Source of the DNA: a virus
Taxonomy: Duplodnaviria; Heunggongvirae; Uroviricota; Caudoviricetes
Strand: one strand, 5' to 3'
IMG/VR virus record: IMGVR_UViG_650377933_000001
Coordinates: 1-40,323 of that record
DNA: 40,323 bases
The translations under genes and the position numbers were made by a program. Under the pieces are notes generated by a model. That model worked only from the letters and a program-made list of their open reading frames with translations, had not been told where the DNA came from and made no database searches. Of this stretch, positions 6,025 through 26,941 are shown piece by piece (position 1 is the stretch's first letter; each line of letters starts with the position of its first letter).

Positions 6025-6993
6025 TTAGTAGGTTATTTTTGTTGCGAATACTTCGCCTTTTACGATGGCTGTTATGATATTTTTAGCAACATCTTCTGAT
6101 GCGCCAACCTTGATAAGGTCAGCAAGTATTTTGTTATTTACTTCTTTCCGGTGAGCTTTATCCTTTGCTCTACACTCTTCCTCTTCCTTGATTCTTTTTT
6201 CTTCTGCTATTCTGGCTTGCTCTTTTGCTTCAGCCTCGCGCCGGATTCGTTCAGCCTCCTCCTGTGCTTTTCGGCGTTCTGCTTCAATTGCCGCCTGCTT
6301 TTCTCTTTCAGCTCGTTCTGCTGCCTCTTTTGCTTCGCGCTGTGCTCGTTGCTCGGCTTCAATGCGTTCACGCTCTGCACGTTCCGCTGCGGCCTTAGCT
6401 TCTGCTTCTCGCCTTGCTGCTGCTTCAATTTCGTCTTTTGCCTTTGCTTCGGCTTCTGCTCTGGCTTTCTCTTCAGCTTCTCTTTTTAAGCGTTCTTCAT
6501 GCTCTCGCTTTTCCTGCTCCGCTTTGAGTCTTGCCTCTTCTCTTTGGCGGTCAAATTCGCGATCCATCAAAATAGCTATTTCATGGTCAGACTCAATTTG
6601 CTTTGCGAGAGCTTCAGCTGCTGCCTTAGCTTCTTCTTCGGCTTTAATCCGCGCCCGTTCTTCCTCATAATCAGTAAGAGGCTGGCGTGCCTTGGCTTTC
6701 AGCTCATCAAGGCGATCACGCACTGTCTTGCGGTTAGCATCAATTAGCTTTGGAATTTCCTTCAGTTCAGCAACAAGGTCTTTGCCAAGACCATCGAGAT
6801 ATGTTTTCGTCTGCGCAACTTTATACGCCAGAGAAGCGATCTCCTTTCTGCCCTTTGCCGTTGTGATATCAGGCACAAAGGACATAACTTCACGTTCAAC
6901 CTTTTGAAGGATTTCTTCAATCTGGTCGGCAGACTGAAATACAGTCATTGCATTTGCTTTTTCAATAACAACTAAATCTGTTACTTCACTCAT
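6025..6993 (-). CDS. Hypothetical E/A/K/R-rich coiled-coil protein (322 aa)
   Basis: ORF-track translation; GGAGGA RBS; structured N-terminal ~120 aa, then ~180 aa of low-complexity AEAEAKA/ERAERE repeats, then a short C-terminal domain. No family assigned. Confidence 0.6.
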   Translation of the reverse strand: MSEVTDLVVIEKANAMTVFQSADQIEEILQKVEREVMSFVPDITTAKGRKEIASLAYKVAQTKTYLDGLGKDLVAELKEIPKLIDANRKTVRDRLDELKAKARQPLTDYEEERARIKAEEEAKAAAEALAKQIESDHEIAILMDREFDRQREEARLKAEQEKREHEERLKREAEEKARAEAEAKAKDEIEAAARREAEAKAAAERAERERIEAEQRAQREAKEAAERAEREKQAAIEAERRKAQEEAERIRREAEAKEQARIAEEKRIKEEEECRAKDKAHRKEVNNKILADLIKVGASEDVAKNIITAIVKGEVFATKITY

Positions 6994-9417: not shown

Positions 9418-9445
9418 AAAAAAAAGGGGCGAATGCCCCCTTATG
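9418..9445 (-). terminator. Rho-independent terminator after the repressor gene
   Basis: Minus strand GGGGGCATTCGCCCC followed by TTTTTTTT immediately after the c2 stop. Confidence 0.5.
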
Positions 9446-10091
9446 GAAGGTTTGCTAGTTTTGCATCGACAACTACGCCGATGATTTTGCAGTTTCCGTT
9501 GATCTCGATCATCGGATATTGTGGGTTAAGTGGTTTTAGAAACTTCCTGCCTGCATCAATAACTAACTTCTTGAAAGTTGCCTCGTTTTCTCCTTCGAGC
9601 TTTGCAACTACCAGTTTCCCGTTACGCGGCTCTACTTCAGGATCGACGAGTATTATCATTCCTTCAGGGATACTGAGACCGGCCGGAGCCGTCATTGAGT
9701 CTCCCTTCACGTCCAACCAAAACGAATCTTCTGAACAGTCTACGGTTGTATCGTACCAGTTATCTATTGCACGCTTATGATATGGTTCTACAGCTTCCAT
9801 CCAGCATCCTGCGCTCACCCAGCTAATCAGAGGGTATGACCCTCTTGGATCATGCCTACTGTGATAGGCAATGTTTGAAAGACTTTCCTCTCCTTTCATC
9901 AGATAGTCAGGGGAACACTTCAACGCATTAGCCAGGGCGAGAAGATTCTCTCCATTTGGCTCTGTCTCAGAGCGTTCCCACTGAGATATGGCAACATTAG
10001 ACACGCCGACCATCTTTCCAAGTGCGGCCTGCCTGATCTTGAGTTCTTTTCTCCGAGCGCGAATGCGCTCTCCCATCAATTGAGTTTTCAT
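9441..10091 (-). CDS. c2: Prophage repressor, P22 C2 type (HTH plus S24 LexA-like autopeptidase domain)
   Basis: 216-aa translation MKTQLMGERIRARRKELKIRQAALGKMVGVSNVAISQWERSETEPNGENLL... near-identical to recalled P22 C2; start codon abuts OR3, implying a leaderless pRM transcript. Confidence 0.95.
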   Translation of the reverse strand: MKTQLMGERIRARRKELKIRQAALGKMVGVSNVAISQWERSETEPNGENLLALANALKCSPDYLMKGEESLSNIAYHSRHDPRGSYPLISWVSAGCWMEAVEPYHKRAIDNWYDTTVDCSEDSFWLDVKGDSMTAPAGLSIPEGMIILVDPEVEPRNGKLVVAKLEGENEATFKKLVIDAGRKFLKPLNPQYPMIEINGNCKIIGVVVDAKLANLP

Positions 10092-10171: not shown

Positions 10172-10357
10172 ATGTACAAGAAAGATGTTATCGACCACTT
10201 CGGAACCCAGCGTGCTGTAGCTAAAGCGTTAGGCATTAGCGACGCAGCAGTCTCTCAGTGGAAGGAAGTCATCCCAGAGAAAGACGCCTATCGACTGGAA
10301 GTCGTTACAGCTGGCGCCCTGAAGTATCAAGAAAGCGCTTACCGCAAAGCGGCATAA
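10172..10357 (+). CDS. cro: Cro repressor (P22 type)
   Basis: 61-aa translation MYKKDVIDHFGTQRAVAKALGISDAAVSQWKEVIPEKDAYRLEVVTAGALKYQ... matches recalled P22 Cro; GGAG RBS. Confidence 0.9.
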   Translation: MYKKDVIDHFGTQRAVAKALGISDAAVSQWKEVIPEKDAYRLEVVTAGALKYQESAYRKAA

Positions 10358-10362
10358 GCAAA

Positions 10363-10406
10363 TTGCTCTTTAACAGTCATGGTCCTCATTCCCGCCGAAA
10401 TGCGGG
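10363..10406 (+). promoter_or_regulatory. nutR (boxA GCTCTTTAACA plus boxB hairpin), followed by a candidate tR1
   Basis: TGCTCTTTAACAGTCATGGTCCTCATTCCCGCCGAAATGCGGGAA; downstream GCGCAT-AAGTTG-ATGCGC hairpin then U-rich tract (10415-10450) as possible tR1. Confidence 0.55.
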
Positions 10407-10465
10407 AATACAACGCGCATAAGTTGATGCGCATAACTTCTTATTTGTTAAGGAAATACTTACAT

Positions 10466-10759
10466 ATGGTTCGTGCAAACAAACGCAACGAGGCTCTAAG
10501 AATCGAGAGTGCGTTGCTTAACAAAATCGCAATGCTTGGAACTGAGAAGACAGCGGAAGCTGTGGGAGTTGATAAGTCGCAGATCAGCAGGTGGAAGAGG
10601 GACTGGATTCCAAAGTTCTCAATGCTGCTTGCTGTTCTTGAATGGGGCGTCGTTGACGACGATATGGCTAGATTGGCACGACAAGTTGCTTCGATTCTCA
10701 CCAATAAAAAACGCCCGGCGGCAACCGAGCGTTCTGATCAAATACAAATGGAATTTTAA
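10466..10759 (+). CDS. cII: CII transcriptional activator
   Basis: 97-aa translation MVRANKRNEALRIESALLNKIAMLGTEKTAEAVGVDKSQISRWKRDWIPKF... matches recalled lambda CII; the track ORF has an unsupported 5' extension. Confidence 0.9.
   Translation: MVRANKRNEALRIESALLNKIAMLGTEKTAEAVGVDKSQISRWKRDWIPKFSMLLAVLEWGVVDDDMARLARQVASILTNKKRPAATERSDQIQMEF
10475..10488 (-). promoter_or_regulatory. CII-binding site of pRE (TTGC-N6-TTGC)
   Basis: Minus strand TTGCGTTTGTTTGC inside the first codons of cII, as in lambda pRE. Confidence 0.5.
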
Positions 10760-11056: not shown

Positions 11057-12004
11057 ATGAGCAATACAGCAAAAATCTACGATTTCAGCGCCGCACACGA
11101 GCGCAGGAGCAACAGGATGGAGAACCAGAAAACTGGTTACATTCCGTTGTACCGGAGCATTCTGAAACAGTCATGGGCGAAAGATGTTTATCTTCGCACC
11201 CTGTGGGAAAACCTTCTCCTGAATGCCGCCAGAAAGCCATACAAAGCGAATTTCAAAGGTCATGAATGGCATCTGCAACCCGGTCAACTGGTTGTGACAG
11301 CAGCTGATTTAGGTCTTCAGTTATGCGACAGACATGGCAAGCCAGCAAGCCGTGATCAGGTTGAGCGGATGCTTCAGGTTTTTGTGAAAGAGGGGATGAT
11401 CTCCATTGATGGAGAGAAGCAAAAAGGTCGTGTGATAACCATCACAAATTACCATGAATATGCTCAAAAAATGGACGATTTACCCGCACATGAAGCCGCA
11501 CAAACAACCGCACATGATGCCGCACATGATGAATCCAGCAATGGCGCGGCTTTCAGCGTACATGCCGCACATGAAAGCGCACATGAAGCCGCACAAACAA
11601 CCGCACATCATGAACAAGAAGGTATTAACAAGAATATAAATAATACCCCCCTACCCCCCAATGGGGGAGGCGATGGGCAGGTTAAACCTGAACGTCGCAA
11701 GGCAGAACGAATCGACTACGAATCCTTCCTGAACGCCTACAACACCGAAGTCGGTGACAGACTGCCACACGCTGTTGCGGTCAACGAGAAACGCAAACGC
11801 CGCCTGAAGAAAATCATCCCGCAACTGAAAACGCCAAACGTGGACGGTTTCAGAGCGTATGTCAGGGCGTTTGTGCATCAGGCCAAGCCGTTTTACTTCG
11901 GAGACAACGACACGGGCTGGACGGCCGATTTTGATTACCTGCTGAGGGAAGACTCGTTAACGGGGGTACGGGAAGGTAAGTTTGCAGACAGGGGGATTGC
12001 ATGA
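11057..12004 (+). CDS. Replication initiator, lambda O-like
   Basis: 315 aa; internal iteron array and AT-rich tract (origin inside the gene, as in lambda O); directly followed by a DnaB-type helicase. Confidence 0.75.
11483..11660. repeat. Candidate replication origin: iteron direct repeats, AT-rich tract and G/C palindrome
   Basis: Units of CCGCACATGA(A/T)G/CCGCACAAACAA in two blocks; 31-nt near-perfect direct repeat CATGAAGCCGCACAAACAACCGCACAT(G/C)ATG at 11490-11520 and 11582-11612; then AACAAGAAGGTATTAACAAGAATATAAATAATAC and CCCCCCTACCCCCCAATGGGGGAGG. Confidence 0.55.

Positions 12005-26685: not shown

Positions 26686-26941
<256 letters not shown>

Follow-up and report, generated by a model that had tools for sequence, protein, structure and literature searches.

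A putative replication origin of 12-bp direct repeats inside the O-like initiator gene of a P22-like lambdoid phage

Analysis of a 40,323-nucleotide stretch of tailed-phage DNA (IMG/VR record IMGVR_UViG_650377933_000001, positions 1 to 40,323; hereafter the window) indicated that the segment at 11484-11670, which lies in the linker-coding middle of an O-like replication initiator gene, is very likely the vegetative (theta-type) replication origin of the phage. This reading draws on the presence of a Phage_rep_O initiator gene and a DnaB-type helicase gene downstream of cI, cro and cII, and on the location of an array of repeats between the coding regions of the two initiator domains and next to an extreme AT-rich tract, as in lambda O. 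It further draws on a conserved layout, on fixed synonymous sites in the repeat core, on a core form that tracks residue 100 of the initiator, and on the co-inheritance of the modules involved. In function and position, the element is very probably a lambda/P22-type origin, and its repeats appear to be an undescribed type of 12-base-pair (bp), non-palindromic direct repeat.

The array consists of eight in-register 12-bp units following the pattern [C/G]CGCACAwnnnn and arranged in two blocks of four (Table 1). Two blocks of CCGCACA-based repeats had been noted in a preliminary description of this DNA. Seven copies of CCGCACA fall within the 129-bp array and three elsewhere, counting both strands of the 40.3-kb window, where shuffled sequences yield an expectation of 5.3 per whole window and hence of about 0.02 per array-sized stretch. 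A 31-nucleotide direct repeat with copies at 11485-11515 and 11578-11608, 93 bp apart, had been described as near-perfect and is in fact perfect. No inverted repeat was found within or between the 12-bp units, which lack dyad symmetry. The array encodes residues 143-186 of the initiator, a repetitive x-A-H-x peptide between the end of the N-terminal domain (around residue 141) and the C-terminal module (from about residue 197), in agreement with the repetitive linker noted earlier. A ninth CCGCACA, located on the plus strand near the beginning of the initiator gene at 11091-11097, some 390 bp upstream of the array, was considered as an autoregulatory site and discarded; it is not conserved in relatives (the equivalent position in locus L010 reads GCTGCACAT and most related loci have none) and is probably due to chance.

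The last core is immediately followed by CATGAACAA, which forms the left edge of the AT-rich tract. This proposed DNA-unwinding element corresponds well to the AT-rich tract of about 35 bp reported earlier: its 33 nucleotides are 82% A+T and 73% purine on the top strand, and only 0.3% of the 33-mers in the window match it in AT-richness. On its right, an imperfect inverted repeat (CCT-A-CCCCC / CAAT / GGGGGAGG) occupies 11650-11670. The G/C-rich palindrome of the preliminary description is present, but it is weak, with a fold of -7.5 kcal/mol that is no better than that of dinucleotide shuffles (z = -0.3), and it overruns the end at 11660 previously given for the whole element. Since it is not notable beyond its C-run/G-run composition, it was accorded little weight as an independent signal. 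The inverted repeat is kept in HK97 and ST104, and locus L029, which has a different C-terminal domain, presents a similar CCCCC-N3-GGGGG.

The identification of the surrounding gene as an O-like initiator, also made in the preliminary description, was borne out by a match of residues 20-132 to the Pfam Phage_rep_O family (PF04492; E = 3.2e-15, 56.8 bits against a cut-off of 28.7), a model on which lambda O also scores, and by the DnaB-type helicase gene that comes next. The gene is 98.9% identical to CUS-3 gene O, and the N-terminus of the protein is barely alignable with that of lambda O (BLASTP E = 0.004 over 65 residues). A sequence search of the PDB with the whole initiator returned nothing even at E = 10. 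The AlphaFold2 (AF2) model of residues 20-143, with a predicted local distance difference test score (pLDDT) of 72, shows a short helix at 82-88, with residue 82 at its start, a longer helix at 99-111, of which residue 100 is the second residue, and a beta hairpin at 115-129. On this basis, a winged helix-turn-helix fold is predicted for the N-terminal domain, in which residue 100 lies at the beginning of the recognition helix. The best PDB matches returned by Foldseek for this model are all winged-helix DNA binders, although weak (E ~0.05); none reached E = 0.001, and no specific structural homologue is claimed. The full-length AF2 model was poor (pLDDT 51) and served only for secondary structure and for delimiting the low-confidence linker: residues 139-217, the stretch that contains the repeat-coded peptide, present pLDDT values below 50 and are predicted to be disordered. 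The C-terminal domain is presumed to be the helicase-recruiting part of the protein. The helicase itself matches both the DnaB_C (E = 9.5e-78) and DnaB N-terminal (E = 4e-13) domains in Pfam, and the same gene is labeled replicative DNA helicase in the CUS-3 record. Public records disagree on where the initiator gene starts, with Met1 (11057, 315 residues) given in CUS-3 and Met21 (11117, 295 residues) in JEP4 and Gally; the start at 11057 is favored because the first ten residues from there resemble lambda O MTNTAKILNF.

To this single instance we added a comparison set of 28 diverged prophage loci from many Enterobacterales genera, with N-terminal domains 65-79% identical, plus two phages. 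All 30 complete loci share the same plan, with n units, a 33-bp spacer, a further n units (n = 3 or 4), CATGAACAA and an AT-rich tract. The length of the spacer is constant in the 30 loci and its sequence is moderately conserved; it was set aside as a candidate second conserved DNA element, with per-position conservation of only 50-90% and no fixed motif other than what an S-N-G peptide would account for. Within the units, information is concentrated mostly in the first eight positions, and the last four vary freely.

Two core forms were observed in this set, CCGCACA in 12 loci and CCG(C/A)GCA in 18, differing at a synonymous site. The core form is uniform across the units of each locus, save for one deviant unit each in L003 and L022, and it matches the identity of residue 100 in all 30 loci, with Asp accompanying A and His accompanying G. 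Position 82 (Ala versus Ser/Thr) also segregates fully with the core form in these 30 loci. The Asp/His to A/G match extends to 133 of 133 further distinct viral loci, obtained from two viral-contig scans seeded with His-type sequences, for a total of 163 out of 163; an earlier viral-contig scan had returned only copies 99-100% identical, which are uninformative on co-variation. The association does not merely reflect two deep clades, because Asp and His types are interspersed on the tree of the N-terminal domain. In the segments on either side of residue 100, similarity between types comes close to that within types, at 0.67 versus 0.72 for residues 101-141 and 0.76 versus 0.82 for residues 40-99. 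Asp at an A:T position and His at a G:C position would fit general recognition tendencies. We regard the reading in which Asp100 reads CCGCACA and His100 reads CCGCGCA as finely balanced, tilting slightly toward doubt. Somewhat more doubtful is the wider proposal of an O subfamily whose winged-helix domains would line up head to tail along two clusters of 12-bp direct repeats, unlike the dimer-on-palindrome arrangement of lambda, with Asp100 or His100 reading one base, position 82 acting as a second coupled position, and two mutually incompatible origin specificities as the outcome.

The comparison also exposed a mosaic structure. Sensitive BLASTN searches split the initiator gene at approximately 11630-11640, inside the AT-rich tract, and alignments confirmed both boundaries. 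Phages of Klebsiella and Yersinia match only positions 48-584 of the query, namely the N-terminal domain and repeats together with the left side of the AT-rich tract, and continue to the right of this tract with homology to the right arm of lambda ori, a lambda O C-terminus and then lambda P. HK97, ST104, Nil2 and many others match only positions 574-948, comprising the right part of the tract, the C/G inverted repeat and the C-terminal domain, with a DNA identity of about 95% to HK97 O and ST104 gene 18. Genes of the HK97/ST104 type had no DNA similarity by BLASTN to the left of ~11630, and their protein N-termini and repeats differ: in HK97 and ST104 the N-terminal domain is a different one and the repeats number four, each 18 bp long and dyad-symmetric (ATTAGCCAAGTCGGCTAA), at a spacing of 20-24 bp. 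The type of C-terminus goes with the gene that follows, a DnaB-type helicase after the P22-type C-terminus (the window and L010) and lambda P after the lambda-type C-terminus. These boundaries, together with the correspondence between C-terminal type and downstream gene, point to two units of inheritance, the N-terminal domain with its own repeats and the C-terminal domain with its helicase or loader, joined within the AT-rich tract. By the same comparison, the window appears as a hybrid, with a right half of the P22/HK97 type and a recognition half from a different O subfamily, found elsewhere with right halves of the lambda type.

At least five or six C-terminal continuations were seen fused to the same N-terminal and repeat module (P0036, P0040, P0047, P0098; L014, L029). 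All of them join right after the HHEQEG(I/N)NKNINN peptide, inside the AT-rich tract, so that this tract is a recombination hotspot. The O C-termini of L029 and L014 are not lambda-like, yet lambda P-family genes come next.

Initiator binding and its stoichiometry, unwinding, helicase loading and origin activity are all steps that we infer, and they could be ordered as follows. Upon derepression, rightward early transcription (cro, cII, O) would make the initiator and traverse the origin, as in lambda. The winged-helix domain would then bind the eight units (core CCGCACAT), probably with one domain per unit in two clusters of four; occupation would probably be head to tail, given that the units have a 12-bp period and no dyad symmetry, and Asp100, at the start of the recognition helix, would read the A at core position 5. 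The resulting nucleoprotein array would stress the adjoining 33-bp AT-rich tract and cause it to melt. The P22 gp18-type C-terminal domain would recruit the phage's own DnaB-type helicase, encoded directly downstream, with host DnaB/DnaC or a lambda-P-type loader being unnecessary, and host primase and DNA polymerase III would take over.

The units could also be genuine initiator sites with a regulatory role, serving in titration or handcuffing, in autoregulation, or as a transcription roadblock through O. Dual roles are established for plasmid iterons, and the co-variation with residue 100 bears on recognition only, not on initiation. In addition, lambda iterons carried on a plasmid inhibit rep-lambda phages (PMC3349717). 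We nonetheless consider a purely regulatory role improbable, since the sites are directly joined to an extreme AT-rich tract whose left edge is invariant in 159 loci, the arrangement occupies the same relative position as the lambda and P22 origins, and no other combination of repeats and AT-rich tract was seen in the replication module (9-13.5 kb). Regulation would, moreover, most likely add to origin function rather than replace it.

If the repeats were simply low-complexity DNA, prone to slippage or recombination and coding for a flexible Ala/His-rich linker, they would have no function as DNA and the origin would lie elsewhere. The predicted disorder of the encoded stretch, the homogenization of the two blocks within each phage and the in-frame changes in unit number among near-identical genes would all be expected in that case. 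The pattern of nucleotide conservation, on the other hand, speaks against this possibility, which we consider very improbable. Three synonymous positions per unit are essentially fixed in about 160 diverged loci. Position 2, the third base of a four-fold synonymous codon, is C in 205 of 206 units; position 5, the third base of the Ala codon, distributes as 80 GCA, 83 GCG and a single GCC, whereas Ala codons elsewhere in the same genes are 34% GCC, 26% GCT, 23% GCA and 16% GCG; and at position 8 the His codon is CAT rather than CAC in 179 of 182 cases. Control sites in the same loci are near saturation, with the commonest base averaging 51% over 13 four-fold sites in invariant N-terminal residues. 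In His-type loci, Glu frequently takes the place of Ala (GCG to GAG) with the neighboring bases unchanged, so that nucleotides are better conserved than amino acids and the DNA appears more constrained than the peptide. The free variation of the non-core third of the unit is contrary to simple homogenization, and the core variant tracks a residue of the DNA-binding domain. The comparative tests thus support a function of the repeats at the DNA level, and not just as a repetitive linker.

Least probable of all is a constraint of other origin, imposed by a host factor, by some phage protein other than the initiator, or by the O mRNA through an RNA or translational feature: the spacer and CATGAACAA are conserved without an assigned reader and the factor bound to the units is itself one that we infer, but the origin region has no Rfam match and no promoter-like site, the only terminator-like match in the array is a weak 5-bp stem, and a site read by a host factor would not be expected to alternate between A and G according to which residue the phage initiator carries in its recognition helix.

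Several observations weigh against the assignment of 11484-11670 as an origin, or against parts of it. Lambda and P22 iterons are dyad-symmetric and the present units are not, which means that the mode of binding in those systems cannot be carried over directly. The association between residue 100 and base 5 is uncorrected for phylogeny, and linkage contributes to it, as the two sites are only ~130-250 bp apart. The N-terminal model is of moderate confidence (pLDDT 72) and its fold matches are weak (E ~0.05). No origin is marked here in the public records examined (CUS-3, JEP4 and Gally). Blocks 1 and 2 are alike within each phage, non-core positions included, which indicates that gene conversion or duplication contributes to their homogeneity and that part of the 'concerted' pattern may be neutral. 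Finally, natural variants with 3 and 12 units imply either that copy number is not critical or that some prophage origins are defective.

These variants belong to a series of near-identical E. coli (Escherichia coli) and Salmonella initiator genes (P0001, P0052, P0054, P0067) that show in-frame gain or loss of units, with 3, 4, 5, 8 or 12 units; P0054 has 3 units, P0001 has 12, and the other alleles have 4 or 5. Two alleles represent the exact 31-residue deletion or duplication expected from recombination between the perfect 31-nucleotide repeats. Judging from these alleles, recombination among the repeats is clearly active and contributes to their homogeneity.

The comparison with lambda supports, with some corrections, the lambda-ori architecture advanced in the preliminary description. 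As in lambda, the initiator gene contains the putative origin, placed between the parts coding for DNA binding (N-terminal) and partner binding (C-terminal), at a place equivalent to that of the ori iterons annotated in the lambda record; multiple iterons precede an AT-rich tract whose top strand is purine-rich; and the initiator belongs to the Phage_rep_O family. Close relatives of the N-terminal and repeat module of the window continue, furthermore, into right-hand ori sequence and an O C-terminus of the lambda type, with lambda P next. The units are not, however, palindromic iterons of ~18-19 bp like those of lambda: lambda has four 18-bp dyad-symmetric iterons in one cluster, whereas the window has eight 12-bp direct units in two clusters 33 bp apart. 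The partner also differs, being a P-type loader of host DnaB in lambda and a DnaB-type helicase here.

With the P22 gene 18/gene 12 module (also HK97 gp54/gp55, ST104 and the 'Eru2' of Stx phages), the window has in common the last third of the initiator (from ~11630 onward), the C/G inverted repeat and a helicase of the same Pfam type and annotation, as well as the location of iterons and AT-rich tract inside gene 18 and the possession of a DnaB analogue of the phage's own (PMC8022706; PMC8044961). It differs in an N-terminal domain that is unrelated at the sequence level and in the iterons, which in HK97/P22 are four, ~18 bp long and dyad-symmetric. Iterons inside the initiator gene have been reported for lambda O, P22 gene 18 and phage L gene 18, with P22 gene 18 described as having "four ~20 bp repeats" (PMC8022706), to which the 18-bp repeats of HK97 and ST104 correspond. 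The 12-bp units thus depart from the lambda/P22 iterons in both length (about 18-20 bp) and dyad symmetry. For phage L gene 18, six imprecise 11-bp copies have been described and an origin proposed from sequence alone (PMC8022706). Set beside the window by this published description, phage L provides the closest published precedent for short, non-lambda-like units in the initiator gene; its repeat sequence (TGTCCAACGGA) differs, and a two-block layout and residue-base co-variation are unreported. Since phage L is reported to have 11-bp repeats, dyad-symmetric iterons of ~18-20 bp may not define the wider family. The literature found on iterons in P22-like, HK620, Sf6, CUS-3 and Stx phages contains general statements and no description of this repeat type, and a literature search with the motif string CCGCACATGA returned only unrelated primer matches.

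Plasmid iteron origins (of the pSC101, R6K, P1, F and RK2 type) are known to combine tandem direct repeats, winged-helix initiators and an AT-rich unwinding element, as seen or predicted here. Plasmid iterons, however, are 17-22 bp long and lie outside the rep gene, and these origins usually add DnaA boxes, use host DnaB and have initiators of a different family. In the window, the units are 12 bp long and lie inside the initiator reading frame; no search was made for DnaA boxes.

This is a widespread module. Of 5,426 complete E. coli genomes, 271 carry at least 80% of the 301-bp origin region at high identity, and the module is also found in CUS-3-like P22-type phages and in over 50 deposited Stx2a-converting phages. 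Toxin yield in Stx2a phages has been linked to the type of replication module they carry (PMC4645166), which makes knowledge of the site and mode of replication start in these phages of practical use. The element fits the textbook lambdoid pattern and leaves the general picture unchanged; what merits experiment is the rule relating Asp/His to A/G, along with the natural alleles that differ in copy number. The pairing of Asp/His with A/G amounts to a simple, falsifiable specificity rule for an initiator of the lambda O family and is the most testable result. If true, related prophages in one cell, or recombinant phages, would avoid cross-initiation, and the pairing would offer a natural one-residue/one-base switch for studying the evolution of initiator-origin specificity. 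The deletion and duplication variants between the perfect 31-nucleotide repeats, in turn, illustrate how such origins change copy number.

Table 1. Features of the putative origin, the initiator gene and neighboring genes, in window coordinates.
Feature	Position	Strand	Sequence or remark
Iteron block 1	11484-11531	+	four 12-bp direct units, core CCGCACA(T/A)
u1	11484 (start)		CCGCACATGAAG
u2	11496 (start)		CCGCACAAACAA
u3	11508 (start)		CCGCACATGATG
u4	11520 (start)		CCGCACATGATG
Inter-block spacer, 33 bp	11532-11564	+	encodes 11 amino acids
Iteron block 2	11565-11612	+	four 12-bp direct units, u6 starting with G
u5	11565 (start)		CCGCACATGAAA
u6	11577 (start)		GCGCACATGAAG
u7	11589 (start)		CCGCACAAACAA
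u8	11601 (start)		CCGCACATCATG
CATGAACAA	11609-11617	+	right after last core, left edge of AT-rich tract; invariant in 159 distinct related loci
AT-rich tract, proposed DNA-unwinding element	11613-11645	+	purine-rich top strand; from composition
C-run/G-run imperfect inverted repeat	11646-11670	+	encodes PLPPNGGG; right-hand (P22 gp18/HK97 gp54-type) module
O-like replication initiator gene, 315 amino acids	11057-12004	+	open reading frame; Pfam Phage_rep_O
N-terminal domain coding region, residues 20-141	11114-11479	+	predicted winged-helix, origin-binding (AF2 model)
Ala82 codon	11300-11302	+	start of preceding helix
Asp100 codon	11354-11356	+	predicted recognition helix, residues 99-111
C-terminal domain coding region	11671-12001	+	P22 gp18/HK97 gp54 type; ~95% DNA identity to HK97 O and ST104 gene 18
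DnaB-type replicative helicase gene, 458 amino acids	12001-13377	+	P22 gene 12 analogue; overlaps initiator stop codon
cI-type repressor gene	9441-10091	-	
cro	10172-10357		rightward early gene
cII	10379-10759		rightward early gene
Small open reading frame, 90 amino acids	10782-11054	+	between cII/oop and initiator gene

The window derives from a P22-like lambdoid phage of E. coli, and the region around the putative origin is 98-99% identical to that of CUS-3 (genus Lederbergvirus) and, to the same degree, to that of many Stx2a-converting phages. The 90-residue open reading frame preceding the initiator gene had no Pfam match; it is annotated as hypothetical in the JEP4 and Gally records, is unannotated in CUS-3, and occupies the position of P22 orf48 and HK97 gp53. 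A strong intrinsic-terminator-like hairpin was found on the minus strand at 10708-10735, extending to ~10790, with a 12-bp stem followed by TTTTTTATT. It is antisense to the 3' end of cII, and its sequence matches the lambda oop/cII 3' region (CCGAGCGTTCTGAxCAAAT...), suggesting that it probably corresponds to an oop-like antisense RNA. Elsewhere in the window, an imperfect tandem repeat with a 48-bp period (two copies, with GCTTCT-like 6-mers within) was observed at 6392-6486, and a perfect hexanucleotide microsatellite, (CAGAGC) x 10.7 with 100% identity, at 26831-26894.

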